DNA from: Nanoarchaeum equitans Kin4-M
GTDB taxonomy: Archaea; Nanobdellota; Nanobdellia; Nanobdellales; Nanoarchaeaceae
Length of the DNA: 32,000 nt
Assembly: GCA_000008085.1 (NCBI GenBank)
Contig: AE017199.1
Coordinates: forward strand, 180,001 to 212,000
Direction: 5' to 3'
Each line of letters starts with the position of its first letter. Position 1 is the stretch's first letter. Below are positions 5,634-11,856 of this stretch, piece by piece. Both the position numbers and the translations under genes were made by a program. The notes beneath the pieces are model-generated. The model made no database searches. It saw only the letters and a program-made list of their open reading frames with translations, and was not told where the DNA came from.

Positions 5634-7769
5634 TTATTTATAAATATCTTCTTGGGTGCTATCGAATTTTTCTATGGCTAACCCAGACCATAAAGGTTTT
5701 TTCATTTGATATACATCTTCTGCTACAGTTTGAACCCTTACAGTATAGGGTAAAGTCCAACTTAATTCTGGGTAACTAATTCCATTGATACTAGCATTCA
5801 TGTTAGTTAATATTTGTTTGTATATATCTCTTACAGGGCCTTCCCTTTGGCCTAGGCTTTCCAATAAGGTTATTTCATTACCAGCTTCAAAAACAAAAGT
5901 AGGACTTTCTATATTGAATGTTCTATCCAATACTTCTTTCAAAGTTTTTGGGTCTTTCTCTAATAATTCTAATTGGGGATTGACTTGTTTTAACCTTTCA
6001 TATATCTCTTTTATGGGCATTATACCAGACCCAGGAGCTAAATGGGCATCTTCTTCGCCTAACCAACCATCTACTATATGCAAATGCTTTATTGTTTTTG
6101 AATCTATTATTTTTTGATATTCTTTTAGCAAATCATCAACAGTATAACCTTCGTGTTTGCCTAATAACATTGTTGTATGTAAATTATCTAATGTAGTTCC
6201 TATATATTTTTCGCTATATTCTTTTAATTTGGCTTCGTTATTTCTAAGCTCTTTGGCTTTTTCTATCATAGTTTTTAATATTTCATCAGCTTTTTCTCCA
6301 TATTCAGATTTTAAGTATAGTTTTATCCTGTCTAAAGCTAATTTAAACTCTTTTACATCGGGATCATCAGAATTGCCTTCATAGGCTTTTACTAATTTAT
6401 CTAAAGCGTCTTTTACTTTTTCTCTCGATTCTTTTATTATTTCTACGAGTTCTCCACTTCTAGAACCGAAAAATTCTGGGAACACATTCTCTATAGCGAT
6501 TATTGGAGTTTTGTCGTATTTTTCTAATCCTAAAGCTTTTAGTGCTTCGCTCTCAGCGAAATTTAAAGCTGCTAATTTAGCAATTGTTTCTGGGACTTTT
6601 TGCATAGTGTATTGAGATAACGTCATAAACTGTTTTTTCTCTAATCTATCTTCTAATTCCTTTTTTATCTCTTCTAATTTTTCTTCCAATTCCTCTTTAG
6701 GCAATTCAATTTGGGCTTTGTTTGTTAGTTCAACATATTTGCTTAGCCATTGCTGTTGTAGCTCTTTCTTTTTATTTTCGTCCTTTTCCTTTTTTATTTG
6801 TTCTTCTATTTGTGATAGTTCATTTCTAAGTTTTTCTAATTCTTCCCTCTTTTCACTAATCATCTTTTCAATTGATTCCTTTATCTTTTGGAAAGTACCA
6901 TTTCTTAGTTTGTGTATTAAATCGGCTTTATCTTTATCTGACAATGGAGTACTATATATTACGCTTTCTAATTGGTTTTTTAATTGTTGGAATGCCAAAT
7001 CTGGTTTTTCAGGATTTTGCGATAAAGCAACTAAAGCATTAATTATGGCATTATTTATTTGGATTTCCAGGTTTCTCTTTAGTTCTTCTTTATATAAGCG
7101 ATTTACATCTATGTTACCTTCTATTTTGAAATAACTCTTTAGATTTGCGTTTTCCATTATTGGTCTACCATTTTCATCAACAATAACATCTACTGCGGGA
7201 ACTAAAGCTTCCCATGCTCTAACATTGTATTTTTTCTTAAGCCATTCCTTGAATTCCTCTTTTTTCTCCAATTCATCAAAATTATTTATATTAGTGCCAT
7301 GCTCTTTATTGTATTGTTCTAACAAATATTTCTTTACAGCTTCTTCATGTTCTTTAGAGAAAAGCCTTTTTGCTTCAACAGATACATGTGTGTTTACAGG
7401 GATATGCCTATTTGAAGGAGTAGCAAATTTTCTAGCAGTATCTAAAGCTATAAAAAGCTTAGCAATTGTTTGAGCCCTAGTTTGTTCGTTTTGTCCCGCT
7501 AATTCGACTAAAGGAGCGTGCATCGAAGCTTTTATACCTGCAGCTTTAGCCAAATCTGCAGCAGTATCGAAAACCCATTTTGGTATCGCTTCCCAGCCGT
7601 TTCGGCCCGACCAACTTAATACTTGGACATCTGTCCTAGGGAAACCTTGCCATATTTGTTTTTCTATTTCTTTATGTATAGCCCTATTAAAAGGGTTTGT
7701 AGAAACAGCTATGTTCGTTTTAGGGATAGGCAATTTATAAAAATCCTTTTCATTATCAACAATCTTCAT
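5634..7769 (-). CDS. Endonuclease IV-like (AP endonuclease family 2 / xylose-isomerase-like TIM barrel) protein with large coiled-coil insertions
   Basis: Ordered metal-ligand-type motifs: MH84APL, NTH128VS, IAIE427N, LD528NLH531, HLH564IVD, ED574AH576LAPGSG, FVFE628AG. Spacings match my recollection of E. coli Nfo ligands, except for two inserts (about aa 135-415 and 436-520) that are K/E/L-rich heptad sequence. Confidence 0.55.
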
Positions 7770-7789
7770 AAAAATTTATTATACTATAT

Positions 7790-9403
7790 TTAATAAGTTT
7801 TGCCTATATAAACCCAATATTTTGCAGGCTCCCCACAATAAACACATCTCTCTTTTTCAGCATTTTCAGGGTTTATATCAGTGCCTCTTACCTCTGCATG
7901 TAACAATTCTTTTATTTGGTTAGCACAGCTTTCTCTCATACAGAATGGGGCTTTTGCTATTTTGTTTTGCTCTATGGCTTCTTTTAATTCATCGAAAGTT
8001 TTAACTCTAACTACCATGTCATTAACAAAAGATTTCGCTTTTTGTTTTAGGTCTTCTTCCATCTCTTTGAATATTTGGTCTATCTTTTCTAACTCGTTTA
8101 GAGAAATTGTGTATTTCTTTTTGTTGTCCCTTCTTACTATGGTTATACTATTGTTTTCCACTTCTTTTAAGCCAATGTCTATTCTTAATGGAACCCCAAT
8201 CAAATCATAATAGTAATATTTATACCCCGGGGTTTTTGTATCGTCCGAATCTAAATAAACTCTATATTTGTCTTTAATTAATTCATAAACTTTTTTAGAA
8301 TACTCTATTACTTTTGTATCGTCTTTGCCCAAAATTGGAATAATAACTATTTGTATTGGCGCTATTTTATAAGGCATAACCAATCCTAAATCGTCGCCTA
8401 GCCAATACAAAGCGCCTCCAAAAGCTCTCATAGATATCCCATAAGAGGTTTGCCATACATATTTTCTAAAATCATATTCTTTTAGTTTTTCGTTTATTTC
8501 CTCTATAGAAGAGATTGTATACTCTTTATCCCCAATTTTTATTGTATAGGTTTTTGTTAATTTACCTTTTTCTAATTCTTCCCAAAACTCTTTTGGCGCA
8601 TGAACTTTGTATTCGTTACCGTTTTTGTCTTTTATATAAATGTTTGGATCTCCGTATTTTTTATAAAAGGGATGATAATCCAAAAATTTTATTTCAAATG
8701 GGATAGCGAATTTTTGCCCTAACAAATGGATAGTACCTACTTGTAAAAACCTACCATCTGGCATTATTGCATCTGCAGCATAGGTTTCTTCTCCCCCAGG
8801 GAATTTGTCCCATTCTGGTCTTCTAACCCATATGTAGGGCAAATACAATACATCCCAAAATATATAATCATAAACCTCTTTGGCTTTAGCCATATGTTCT
8901 CTAGCATCTTCTTCACTTCTATGTACCGAATGAGTTTCGTTCCATAAAACCTCTCTCCCCCTAATTAGAGCTTTTGTAGATTTGGTTTCGTATCTATAAA
9001 CGGTATTAGTCATATAAATAATTAAAGGTAAATCCCTATAGCTTTCGATCCATTTGGCAAACATATAATACATTTCTGTTTCAGAAGTGGGTCTAAGTAT
9101 CAGTGGGTCTTCTAATTTATCGTTACCAGCTCTCTCTATCCAAAATACCTCTTCTTCAAAACCTTTTATATGTTCGCTCTCTTTTTTAAATATAGAATAT
9201 GGTATAACTATAGGAAACCATGCCGGCTCTGCACCTATAGATTCTAATTTGTTTTCCAATAAGGACATCAAAAATTTGAATGCTTTATATCCATATGGCT
9301 TATAAACGGGCATTCCCTTTACGGGATAAGCGTCATCGATAATATTGGCTTTCCTTACTATTTCGTTATACCATTCCTTTGGGTTTTCGCTTTTTTTAAC
9401 CAT
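7790..9403 (-). CDS. proS: Prolyl-tRNA synthetase (archaeal/eukaryotic type)
   Basis: WYNEIVRKANIID, LILRPTSETEMYYMFAKWIESYRDLP, RGREVLWNETHSVH, the Zn-type C-terminal domain CVYCGEPAKYWVYIGKTY, and a terminal Tyr. Confidence 0.95.
   Translation of the reverse strand: MVKKSENPKEWYNEIVRKANIIDDAYPVKGMPVYKPYGYKAFKFLMSLLENKLESIGAEPAWFPIVIPYSIFKKESEHIKGFEEEVFWIERAGNDKLEDPLILRPTSETEMYYMFAKWIESYRDLPLIIYMTNTVYRYETKSTKALIRGREVLWNETHSVHRSEEDAREHMAKAKEVYDYIFWDVLYLPYIWVRRPEWDKFPGGEETYAADAIMPDGRFLQVGTIHLLGQKFAIPFEIKFLDYHPFYKKYGDPNIYIKDKNGNEYKVHAPKEFWEELEKGKLTKTYTIKIGDKEYTISSIEEINEKLKEYDFRKYVWQTSYGISMRAFGGALYWLGDDLGLVMPYKIAPIQIVIIPILGKDDTKVIEYSKKVYELIKDKYRVYLDSDDTKTPGYKYYYYDLIGVPLRIDIGLKEVENNSITIVRRDNKKKYTISLNELEKIDQIFKEMEEDLKQKAKSFVNDMVVRVKTFDELKEAIEQNKIAKAPFCMRESCANQIKELLHAEVRGTDINPENAEKERCVYCGEPAKYWVYIGKTY
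9392..9399 (+). promoter_or_regulatory. TATA-like box for nob1, embedded in proS codons
   Basis: TTTTTTAA, 19 nt upstream of the ATG at 9419. It lies inside the first codons of the divergent proS. Confidence 0.4.
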
Positions 9404-9418
9404 GTTTCTTTATAGTCT

Positions 9419-9835
9419 ATGGTTTTAAAAGTAGTAGATAGCTCTTATGCTATTAGAGCAGATTTTATTCCAAAGGATTCGGTAACAGTTAAAGAAGCAA
9501 TAAAAGAGATACAAAAATTCGATAAAGAAAAAGCCTATAGCTTAATTGCTTTAGAACCTAAAAAAGAATATATAGATTTGGTAAAGCAAAATATAAAAGG
9601 GGAAAAATTATCGAAAACAGATATTAAATTATTGGCTTTGGCTAAACAATTAAATGCCATATTATTAACCGATGACACTGATATGCAAAGTGTGGCTTTA
9701 AGATTGGGAATAAAAGTTAAAGGCTATAGAATTACAATAGAAAAACCGAAGAAAAAAAGATATAGATGTCCCAATTGTGGAAGGTTTTATAACAAACCTT
9801 ATTGCCCTATTTGTGGTCTTCGATTAAACCAATAA
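9419..9835 (+). CDS. nob1: Nob1-like endonuclease (PIN domain + C-terminal zinc ribbon), 16S rRNA 3'-end maturation
   Basis: VVDSSYAI (PIN acidic 1), LSKTDIKLLALAKQLNAILLTDDTDMQSVALRLGIKV (PIN acidic 3/4), then CPNCGRFYNKPYCPICG. Confidence 0.7.
   Translation: MVLKVVDSSYAIRADFIPKDSVTVKEAIKEIQKFDKEKAYSLIALEPKKEYIDLVKQNIKGEKLSKTDIKLLALAKQLNAILLTDDTDMQSVALRLGIKVKGYRITIEKPKKKRYRCPNCGRFYNKPYCPICGLRLNQ
9423..9430 (-). promoter_or_regulatory. TATA-like box for proS, embedded in nob1 codons
   Basis: Palindromic TTTTAAAA, 19 nt upstream of the ATG at 9403. It lies inside nob1 codons 2-4. Confidence 0.4.
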
Positions 9836-11306
9836 AGAAGTTTTTACTCTCTCTAACTCTAAATCCTAATTTTTCTATTTGGTCTTTACATTTTACTCCT
9901 ACGGCATAGTTTTTATTGTATAAAACAACACAATCCAGATCTATTAATTTTTTTATTAGCTTTATTAGATCACTTAGTTCTAGGCTATCGCTCACTTTTA
10001 TTATGTATTCGCCATTATTTATTTTCTCTTGTATTAGCCTAAAGTAATCTTTTAATAGAGAATCATATTTCTTTTCCATTGCTTTCCAATTATCGAAAAA
10101 CTTCTTTACTGCTATGGGGGTATTATCGATATCGGTTTTAGTTATTTTGGATATTTCTTTTAATATTTTGTCCCTTTTAATGATTTCCTTTACCGCTTGG
10201 TTTCCAGTAGTTAAGTATATTCTTATAGTATTATCGCTAATCTTTTTTGATGCCAATATTTTTATATAGCCAACTTGTATTGTATTATCTAAATGGGTTC
10301 CAGAACATGCTTCAACATCTAAATCTTCTATCTCAACTATTCTTAATATTTTCTCTGGGACTACTCCTCCTTGGTATATTCTAAAACCAAACCTCTTCTC
10401 TGCTTCGTTTTTAGGTAAGAAATATTTTTTGATCGGTCTCATTTCCATTACTATTTTGTTTGCTTCCTTTTCTAATAGCTCTAACTCTTCGTCAGATAAA
10501 TTCTTATAATGGGTTAAATCTATTGTAGCATATTCGTATTTTTTCTCAGCCCCCGCTTGCCAAATGTGTTCGCCGAACAATTTTCTTGCTATCCCTGTAA
10601 TTATATGAACCGCAGTGTGGTTGCGAGATAGTTGTAACCTTCTATCAAAATCTATTAATAATACGGGGTTTTCTATTTTCTTTAGTTTCTCTATATCATC
10701 AACTTTATGTAAAATTACTTTGCCCTTCTTTATTACATCTATAACTCTAACAAAGACTATTTCTTCTTTTTTGTATTGGTAGTCTTTATAATATTCATAA
10801 ACATCCTTATAAAATGGTATATTATATTTAGAATATTGGCCCGTTTTGTACAAATATACTAAGGAATCTCTATCTATTATATAACCGGTATCGTGCTCTT
10901 GTCCCCCCATAGTTGGATAAAAAACGGTTTTATCGAATATCGCATAATCTTTCTCTATTCCCAATAGATTTGCTTCGCAAAATTTTAAGAAAGTATCTTT
11001 CCAAAATAGAAACTCTGTAGGTTTATATTTAGAAACATCGATGTCTATTTCTTTTTTATGCTTTTCCGCTTTAGATTTTTGTCTATGTTTTTCTAATAAT
11101 TCATAGAACTTTTCTGGAATATGATCAACAATTAGATCGGGAGTTATCCCTTTAGAGATATATAGTTCAAACAAAACCTTTGCTTTTTCTTCATCGCTTA
11201 AGTTTTTAATTTTTTCCCTTGTTTTTTCTATAAGGGGTTTAAATTGCTTTTCAGTTTGTTTATATTTCTTATATTCCTCTAATATTATTTCATTGATTGG
11301 TATCAT
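9807..11306 (-). CDS. alaS: Alanyl-tRNA synthetase, C-terminal half only (split gene: end of tRNA-recognition region + editing + C-terminal domain)
   Basis: LFELYISKGITPDLIVDHIPEKFYELLEKH; the editing-domain zinc motifs HTAVHIITGIARK and EACSGTHL. No class II catalytic motifs are anywhere in the ORF or upstream of it. Confidence 0.9.
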   Translation of the reverse strand: MIPINEIILEEYKKYKQTEKQFKPLIEKTREKIKNLSDEEKAKVLFELYISKGITPDLIVDHIPEKFYELLEKHRQKSKAEKHKKEIDIDVSKYKPTEFLFWKDTFLKFCEANLLGIEKDYAIFDKTVFYPTMGGQEHDTGYIIDRDSLVYLYKTGQYSKYNIPFYKDVYEYYKDYQYKKEEIVFVRVIDVIKKGKVILHKVDDIEKLKKIENPVLLIDFDRRLQLSRNHTAVHIITGIARKLFGEHIWQAGAEKKYEYATIDLTHYKNLSDEELELLEKEANKIVMEMRPIKKYFLPKNEAEKRFGFRIYQGGVVPEKILRIVEIEDLDVEACSGTHLDNTIQVGYIKILASKKISDNTIRIYLTTGNQAVKEIIKRDKILKEISKITKTDIDNTPIAVKKFFDNWKAMEKKYDSLLKDYFRLIQEKINNGEYIIKVSDSLELSDLIKLIKKLIDLDCVVLYNKNYAVGVKCKDQIEKLGFRVRESKNFFIGLIEDHK

Positions 11307-11856
11307 TTAAATCTAAAAACCATTTCTTTATAGCTTCTATTTTTTGTTTAATGTCTTTGACATCTTCTTTCGGTTTTTCTTCTTTTTCCTCTTTTACCTC
11401 GGGTTTTGCTTCTTTTTGTTTTGGGGCCAACCATTGGTCTAATATTGGATCTAAATAGTTTTTTATTTTTTCTACCCATTCTTTAGCAGTATTATCGTCT
11501 AATTTTTCTCTGGCCCATTCCATTACTATTTTGTTTTGGTCATTTTCTTGCCTAGGTATTATATATATCGCAACATGGGGAACTCTTTGCCCTGCGTAAG
11601 GGCCATTGGGAATATAAATTGTAACACTCGGATAAATAGAACCAATTACTTTGGCAAATATTACTGAAGCTTCTAAAATTTTATGTAAAATCTCTCTATC
11701 CAATTCCCAAATAAATGTTACATGTTGTTTGGGAATAATTAATAGTTGGCCCGGATGTGCTGGATAAATGTCTAAAACAACAACTAAATCGTTATCTTCA
11801 TATATTTTATATGAAGGGATTTGCCCAGATGCTATAGCACAAAATAAGCATTCCAT
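11290..11856 (-). CDS. HIT-family protein with degenerate histidine triad and Lys/Glu-rich C-terminal tail
   Basis: CLFCAIASGQIPSYKIYEDNDLVVVLDIYPAHPGQLLIIPKQH is the classic HIT N-terminus. The triad position reads QRVPHVAIYIIPR instead of HxHxHxx. There is a 17-nt overlap with the alaS-C start. Confidence 0.8.
   Translation of the reverse strand: MECLFCAIASGQIPSYKIYEDNDLVVVLDIYPAHPGQLLIIPKQHVTFIWELDREILHKILEASVIFAKVIGSIYPSVTIYIPNGPYAGQRVPHVAIYIIPRQENDQNKIVMEWAREKLDDNTAKEWVEKIKNYLDPILDQWLAPKQKEAKPEVKEEKEEKPKEDVKDIKQKIEAIKKWFLDLNDTNQ

Follow-up and report, generated by a model that had tools for sequence, protein, structure and literature searches.

NEQ209 of Nanoarchaeum equitans, a predicted AP_endonuc_2-type barrel interrupted by helical inserts and a candidate three-metal phosphoesterase

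Nanoarchaeum equitans lives with about 550 genes, nearly all of them for information processing. Which enzyme activity, then, is encoded by a long gene of this genome that carries no functional name? The gene lies in a stretch of 32,000 nucleotides (nt) of strain Kin4-M (contig AE017199.1, positions 180,001 to 212,000), which we analysed as a whole and call the window. Its open reading frame (ORF) occupies window positions 5634..7769 on the minus strand, starts with ATG and encodes 711 amino acids (aa; 82 kDa, pI 5.7). It is an exact match to AAR39062.1 (UniProt Q74ND6) of N. equitans Kin4-M, for which the sole name is NEQ209. An earlier note on this DNA had taken the product for an intact trinuclear-metal apurinic/apyrimidinic (AP) endonuclease barrel with a long antiparallel coiled-coil arm. 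Here we report that NEQ209 belongs to the AP_endonuc_2 superfamily and, as modelled, has an eight-strand barrel into which two helical inserts are set, that its complete set of putative metal ligands is strongly conserved in a large archaeal family, and that it may be a three-metal phosphoesterase acting on a non-classical substrate. We give this tentative functional reading a probability of roughly 45%.

The residues and motifs from which the earlier note had argued are all where it placed them: H84 (MHAPL), H128 (NTHVS), E427 (IAIEN), D528 and H531 (LDNLH), H564 (HLHIVD), D574 and H576 (EDAHL) and E628 (FVFEAG). The nine ligand positions that it had listed for Escherichia coli endonuclease IV (Nfo), namely H69, H109, E145, D179, H182, H216, D229, H231 and E261, likewise match the residue types of the real E. 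coli K-12 sequence. Most spacings are near those of Nfo: 44 residues versus 40 for H84 to H128, 3 versus 3 for D528 to H531, 33 versus 34 for H531 to H564, 10 versus 13 for H564 to D574 and 2 versus 2 for D574 to H576. The two long intervals are also as the note had estimated them. H128 and E427 are 299 residues apart versus 36 in Nfo, about 263 extra where about 260 had been proposed, and E427 and D528 are 101 apart versus 34, about 67 extra where about 70 had been proposed. When profiles were aligned with hhalign, all nine NEQ209 ligands fell in register with the nine of E. coli Nfo, so that the profile alignment places the conserved residues just as the note had them.

To judge conservation we used a family alignment of NEQ209 with 125 full-length relatives (126 sequences in total, at 21-39% identity). 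H84, H128, E427, D528 and E628 are present in 126/126 sequences, and H531 and H564 in 125/126 each. The pair D574 and H576 is found in 112/126 (89%), and 11 further sequences have His and Glu at these two positions (nt 6042-6050), as in NFGFEHTELP. This coupled change from D-x-H to H-x-E keeps two side chains able to bind metal, which argues that the pair really ligates a metal. The residue after the strand-5 Glu, N428, is conserved in 95% of the alignment. Judged from these sequences, the endonuclease-IV-type set of nine ligands is complete and strongly conserved, and conservation together with the profile evidence puts the pattern beyond chance.

The fold to which these ligands belong is recognised by the Pfam AP_endonuc_2 profile (PF01261), which matches NEQ209 at 32.1 bits versus a gathering cut-off of 31.1 (E=1.2e-7) in two stretches, the best covering residues 520-597. 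With both inserts swapped for short linkers, the match becomes one stretch over profile positions 31-220 of 249 and scores 34.6 bits; a relative from another contig (P0002) scores 59.1 bits against the same profile. AlphaFold run on the single sequence gave an unusable model with a predicted local distance difference test score (pLDDT) of 41. Run on the 126-sequence alignment, it gave a model with a pLDDT of 78.7 and a predicted template modelling score of 0.76. In this model eight strands lie at residues 20-23, 45-49, 80-84, 124-128, 423-427, 523-528, 560-564 and 624-627, mostly with pLDDT >90 in the core, and strands 3-8 finish at or beside H84, H128, E427, D528, H564 and E628. Eight strands with the ligands at their C-terminal ends are what is expected of a closed triose-phosphate isomerase (TIM) barrel; on barrel closure, which the note had left to such a model, prediction and expectation agree.

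Along the minus strand, the N-terminal part of the barrel (residues 1-136, strands 1-4, pLDDT 79-98) is encoded at 7362..7769, with H84 at nt 7518-7520 and H128 at nt 7386-7388. Barrel helix 4, strand 5 and helix 5 (residues 384-451) lie at 6417..6620, with E427 at nt 6489-6491, and are modelled as a helix at 384-412, a strand at 423-427 and a helix at 438-450, all with pLDDT >90. The C-terminal part (residues 512-660, strands 6-8; 5790..6236) carries six of the ligands, whose codons are at 6186-6188 (D528), 6177-6179 (H531), 6078-6080 (H564), 6048-6050 (D574), 6042-6044 (H576) and 5886-5888 (E628). Beyond it, a C-terminal tail of residues 661-711 (5637..5789) is predicted to be disordered (pLDDT <50 for 662-711), yet its aromatic, proline and glycine positions are conserved (consensus Y..GYG..LP..HF..YG.GFS.LP.ELGG; columns P667, W671, Y675 and P692); it may serve for docking or oligomerisation. 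The start at M1 is the correct one; a public gene call from M83 (629 aa) would remove strands 1-3. We found no transmembrane segment in NEQ209 (maximum 19-residue hydropathy 0.82).

Insert 1, residues ~137-383 (6621..7361), is a helical domain in the β4-α4 loop on the catalytic face of the barrel, and in the hhalign alignment it corresponds to the loop that connects H109 with helix 4 in Nfo. The distance from the second His to the Glu ranges from 224 to 356 residues across the 126 sequences (median 270); therefore insert 1 is a family trait. Insert 2, residues ~452-511 (6237..6416), sits in the α5-β6 connection on the non-catalytic side and is predicted to form a helical hairpin with helices at 452-464 and 470-509 (40 residues; pLDDT 93-98). 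Its alignment columns have an occupancy of 0.02-0.17, and the Glu-to-Asp distance is 101 in NEQ209 versus a family median of 53. Within the family alignment, the ~50 extra residues of insert 2 occur only in NEQ209 and a 41%-identical relative, P0004, and BLASTP of NEQ209 against P0002 opens a 49-residue gap at this point. Insert 2 lies on the opposite side of the barrel and is probably structural. A third, small and lineage-specific insert at residues ~598-622 (5904..5978; occupancy 0.08-0.25) is common to NEQ209 and P0004 and accounts for an H564-to-E628 spacing of 64 versus a family median of 41. The architecture, with which the earlier note was not familiar in this enzyme family, is thus not unique: insert 1 is the layout of a whole family in DPANN/Nanoarchaeota, and only insert 2 is lineage-specific.

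The nature of the inserts also differs in part from what had been proposed. They are indeed rich in Lys, Glu, Leu and Gln (a fraction of 0.49 in insert 1 and 0.44 in insert 2, versus 0.24-0.38 in the core). A heptad signal was significant only at residues ~291-336 of insert 1 (6762..6899), a coiled-coil-like stretch that includes the example given in the earlier note (p 0.015-0.03 by a crude best-register score of a/d hydrophobicity versus shuffled controls, which is not a calibrated predictor); insert 2 gave no significant signal in this test. Nor does the model contain a single long coiled-coil arm. Insert 1 is modelled as a bundle-like set of six to eight separate helices, each 18-30 residues long (139-157, 164-181, 222-251, 256-273, 278-306, 308-327, 331-350 and 359-376; pLDDT 44-90). 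The inserts are the least conserved parts of the family alignment; the columns of N182 and W186 look nearly invariant and were not relied on, the placement of the N. equitans lineage inside insert 1 being visibly unreliable.

How widely is this interrupted barrel distributed? An exhaustive phmmer search of 1.84 billion representative proteins returned 223 matches at E<=1e-3, mostly 580-760 aa long and matching in three separate stretches. We considered the shorter matches as possible insert-free relatives and rejected them, as all of them are N-terminally truncated fragments without the HAP region. In a scan of one genome per GTDB species we found at least 369 loci with relatives, a lower bound because the scan needs exact motif patterns. 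The 80 listed loci carry, with few exceptions, the labels Pacearchaeota, Woesearchaeota, Nanoarchaeota or Iainarchaeum, and the source names for family members are "sugar phosphate isomerase/epimerase" or "hypothetical protein". Two of the loci (L033 and L070) are titled "bacterium" and "uncultured Methanosarcinales", yet both have a DPANN gene neighbourhood (archaeal L10e and a 195-aa protein family, c7), so that these bin labels are probably wrong. The ~600-aa NEQ209 family is therefore spread across DPANN/Nanoarchaeota and is probably a core enzyme rather than an oddity. The fold and the ligand set were already known. Our literature searches found no description of a barrel of this kind interrupted by a ~250-aa helical domain, and none of such a layout as a large unnamed family of DPANN/Nanoarchaeota.

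To place the family within the superfamily, we removed the inserts from the family alignment and used the resulting core profile (for hmmsearch, a hidden Markov model built from all 126 insert-free cores). The sole convincing match in a profile search of the PDB was MJ1311 of Methanocaldococcus jannaschii (3WQO, "D-tagatose 3-epimerase-like"), with E=2.6e-16 for the full-length profile and 2e-18 for the insert-free one. The two share HAP, the strand-4 His, D..GH, HxHxxDN, D-x-H-L..G.G and the final Glu. Of the nine ligands, eight are visible in the aligned stretches, and the strand-5 Glu falls outside them. MJ1311 is reported to conserve all nine endonuclease IV ligands and to have no DNA groove, with residues just after strand 4 that cover the metal site of the partner subunit (Uechi et al. 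2014, Acta Cryst F). If so, insert 1 would expand exactly that post-strand-4 loop. MJ1311 differs in being an uninterrupted barrel of 293 aa, whereas the NEQ209 family has 190-320 extra residues between β4 and α4 and a conserved C-terminal tail. It has been listed as a predicted endonuclease IV homologue (PMC2770678). Since MJ1311 itself is uncharacterised, no function can be transferred from it to NEQ209. A search for the MJ1311 family with a 106-aa fragment of the protein returned one 117-aa fragment only.

Is NEQ209, then, a true endonuclease IV of DNA repair, with AP endonuclease and 3'-repair diesterase activity on duplex DNA and with inserts that serve as scaffold, ruler or partner platform? 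From its sequence features we think this unlikely. It is a member of the same superfamily, its nine ligands are in register with those of Nfo, and it has HAP after the first His and Asn after the Glu, as endonuclease IV does. The core profile also matches a short archaeal endonuclease-IV-like protein with the HAPYYINL motif, encoded in the P0004 genome, at a significant level (hhalign probability 81%, E=1.2e-5, 199 columns), and the gene is kept in genomes dominated by information processing. However, the match to E. coli Nfo is marginal (hhalign probability 3.8%, E=0.011; hmmsearch 3.6 bits), the NCBIfam nfo models gave no match at E<=1, and no Nfo chain appeared within E<=1 in the PDB profile search. 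The column of the Nfo wedge residue Tyr72 holds Ile, Leu, Val or Met in 112/126 sequences, with Tyr not among the common residues; the HAPY(L/I)INL signature of endonuclease IV has shrunk to HAPxxDPxGF; and the family alignment shows no conserved equivalent of Nfo Arg37 in the loop between strand 2 and helix 2. The barrel is interrupted by a ~250-aa domain in a loop of what would be the DNA-binding face, and the nearest structure, MJ1311, reportedly has no DNA groove. Of the earlier proposal, the barrel and its nine-ligand set stand, but the assignment as an AP endonuclease does not. Further, among the most abundant proteins of N. equitans is NEQ368 (293 aa, arCOG06583), a separate and short endonuclease IV homologue; therefore NEQ209 is not the organism's sole endonuclease-IV-type enzyme. 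The long and the short form also occur together, 2 kb apart, in the genome of P0004, a 757-aa protein of a hydrothermal-vent Nanoarchaeote and the closest relative of NEQ209. There (locus L084, 7367-13362) the gene order is HIT, ThiS-like, P0004, a 604-aa membrane protein that begins on the very next base, ferredoxin and the short endonuclease-IV-like gene, whose product has 278 aa. No short endonuclease IV gene was seen in the 6-kb flanks of the pacearchaeal and woesearchaeal loci, a result that holds for the flanks and not for whole genomes.

A different chemistry is suggested by the characterised protein closest to NEQ209 by profile, the fructoselysine 3-epimerase FrlC of E. coli (hhalign probability 95.4%, E=1.9e-8, 200 columns; hmmsearch 33.7 bits; the corresponding values for E. 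coli UlaE are 6.5% and 6.9 bits). NEQ209 would then be a sugar or ketoamine isomerase/epimerase that transfers protons at a Glu-Asp-His-Glu metal site, like FrlC or D-tagatose 3-epimerase. The earlier note had named assignment to a sugar-isomerase subfamily as evidence that would count against its own reading, and the profiles come close to such an assignment, with 95% for FrlC versus 3.8% for Nfo. The strand-2 motif G..x(I/V)E recalls the sugar-isomerase branch; and the PDB matches after MJ1311 are sugar epimerases (E ~0.06-0.5). In NCBIfam, weak sub-threshold matches were obtained to the FrlC, CbiR and hydroxypyruvate isomerase models, with those of FrlC and hydroxypyruvate isomerase on top, and the IMG and source annotation "sugar phosphate isomerase/epimerase" points the same way. 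Nevertheless, we regard an epimerase as doubtful. The FrlC model NF007360 is matched through its C-terminal motif only, at 20-30 bits, far under its cut-off of 305; with a significant hhalign match and a missed cut-off, the NEQ209 family and FrlC are related and not orthologous. FrlC has HLHIVD..G..D.H..PG.G.(M)P and most ligand positions in common with NEQ209, but it is a 276-aa protein with no inserts, and the context of a fructoselysine-utilisation operon is absent at NEQ209. H84 is invariant in the family, whereas FrlC has Gly at strand 3 and no equivalent of Nfo H69 (QMPIIGY), and it probably also lacks the histidine of D..H. The family has the Glu-Asp-His-Glu set, as Nfo also does. At strands 3 and 4, where ketose 3-epimerases reportedly carry small residues, Gly or Ala, that leave space for the sugar, as in the structure of Agrobacterium D-psicose 3-epimerase, the NEQ209 family has invariant His. 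The coupled D-x-H to H-x-E swap suggests metal ligation at a third site. D-x-H as such is not exclusive to endonuclease IV, since FrlC also has it (HLHIVD..G..D-T-H..PGEG). Finally, the organisms that conserve the family have little central metabolism, and N. equitans is not known to have a carbohydrate pathway in which an epimerase could take part (Waters et al. 2003). Very improbable, in our view, is an inactive barrel reused as a scaffold, in which the helical inserts would do the work. Such a scaffold might have large helical inserts with some coiled coil, and a tail conserved in spite of its predicted disorder, as NEQ209 does. Yet the putative catalytic and metal residues are invariant or almost so at 21-39% identity; a dead enzyme would be expected to show the reverse of this pattern, in which conservation is highest at the ligands and lowest in the inserts.

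The reading that we prefer takes NEQ209 for an active, metal-dependent hydrolase, most likely a three-metal phosphoesterase with a non-classical substrate. The nine His, Asp and Glu residues at the C-terminal ends of strands 3-8 would hold three metal ions, as in endonuclease IV, and these ions would activate water for cleavage of a phosphate ester. The His residues that are invariant at strands 3 and 4 suit the metal-1 site of endonuclease IV. Placed on the catalytic face, insert 1 may be a lid, or it may select the substrate or mediate oligomerisation. In this position it would take the place of the open groove in which endonuclease IV receives duplex DNA, because the DNA-recognition loops of that enzyme are on the same β-α-loop face (PMC13113976). 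The substrate is thus probably something other than a classical duplex AP site. Chemistry of this sort has a precedent in CbiR, a cobamide-remodelling phosphodiesterase of the AP_endonuc_2 superfamily, which cleaves non-DNA phosphodiesters by means of conserved His, Asp and Glu. The CbiR model matches one member of the NEQ209 family at E=7e-7 and 28.9 bits, below its cut-off of 105; CbiR has no helical insert, and the NEQ209 family has no cobamide gene context.

A hint at the substrate comes from the gene neighbourhood. In Pacearchaeota and Woesearchaeota the NEQ209 homologue belongs to a same-strand array made up of a 478-aa protein, an acidic low-complexity protein of ~190 aa, the NEQ209 homologue itself and a nucleotidyltransferase of ~297 aa (loci L003-L082, with the NEQ209-homologue match at ~6001-7800, and L001, at 2555-2854). 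This minimal nucleotidyltransferase, with its Lys-rich N-terminus, is directly downstream in 58/80 loci, typically 17-70 nt away, and it also follows the NEQ209 homologue in the P0002 contig. For the 478-aa neighbour (family c2) no Pfam or PDB relative was found. N. equitans is not known to have central carbohydrate pathways (Waters et al. 2003). With a nucleotidyltransferase as neighbour and sugar metabolism missing from N. equitans, our leading guess for the substrate of NEQ209 is a nucleic-acid end or a nucleotide-derived phosphoester. A link to HIT genes, which are seen near the NEQ209-type gene in N. equitans and in L084, was also considered and was not found in other loci.

Several observations weigh against a three-metal phosphoesterase. 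FrlC, an epimerase and the closest characterised protein by profile, has HxHxxD...DxH..PGxG and at least 7 of the 9 ligand positions, so that the ligand pattern alone does not prove hydrolase chemistry. The number of metal ions cannot be read from sequence, and the role of insert 1 as a lid is suggested only by the loop topology of the model. Foldseek comparison of the whole model with the PDB was weak (best E=0.05), because the inserts break the alignment, and it returned a mix of endonuclease IV and sugar epimerases/isomerases: besides xylose-isomerase-like barrels, the matches include TIM-barrel enzymes of other kinds, glycoside hydrolases among them, with endonuclease IV (3aam) at a probability of 0.99 and D-tagatose 3-epimerase at 1.00. 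Neither the N. equitans window nor L084, moreover, has the nucleotidyltransferase.

Whatever its reaction, NEQ209 is kept and expressed in a very reduced genome, and hundreds of ultra-small DPANN archaea keep the interrupted barrel with its metal site intact. This makes it a testable candidate for a missing core activity in DPANN symbionts, and a natural case in which a catalytic-face loop of a TIM barrel has taken up a large domain. A bolder possibility, which we consider unlikely, is that the NEQ209 family and MJ1311 form a functionally new class of three-metal TIM-barrel hydrolases, in which the helical domain redirects the chemistry to a phosphoester outside duplex DNA that is essential to the host-dependent Nanoarchaeota. 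Such enzymes may process nucleic-acid ends together with the adjacent nucleotidyltransferase, or may salvage host-derived phosphodiesters; in that case the family would count among the few enzymes that define DPANN archaea as a lineage. For annotation the lesson is a practical one: the nine-ligand signature is not confined to bona fide AP endonucleases (MJ1311 has it, and FrlC nearly all of it), which makes annotation by ligand pattern alone unsafe.

In the genome, NEQ209 lies 20 nt downstream of the prolyl-tRNA synthetase gene and 17 nt upstream of the gene for ribosomal protein L13, all on the same strand. A literature search found no mention of NEQ209. It is, however, present in a proteomics supplement (PMC3149612) as a 711-aa protein without arCOG, with spectral counts of 20 and 95, and is therefore expressed. 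We considered an origin in a defence system or a virus and rejected it, as PHROGs and PADLOC gave no match. Foldseek of the whole model against viral structures returned noise. One public assembly of N. equitans reads breaks the gene at window ~7165-7175 (minus strand; residues 199-205), yielding products of 203 aa (residues 1-199, then EMVDQ and a stop) and 507 aa (residues 205-711). The break is consistent with one A missing from the A4 run in GATGAAAATGG.

The window as a whole has a G+C content of ~31%, and ARAGORN found no tRNA genes in its 32 kb. The N. equitans hallmark genes that it carries include, besides those for prolyl-tRNA synthetase and L13, the genes for a 154-aa tRNA splicing endonuclease subunit, arginyl-tRNA synthetase and the C-terminal half of a split alanyl-tRNA synthetase. 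The HIT homologue mentioned above is at 11290-11856 on the minus strand, 3.5 kb from NEQ209. The half alanyl-tRNA synthetase (499 aa) is encoded at 9807-11306 on the minus strand, and its 3' end overlaps by 29 nt a convergent ORF for a 138-aa PIN-domain protein on the plus strand (9419-9835).

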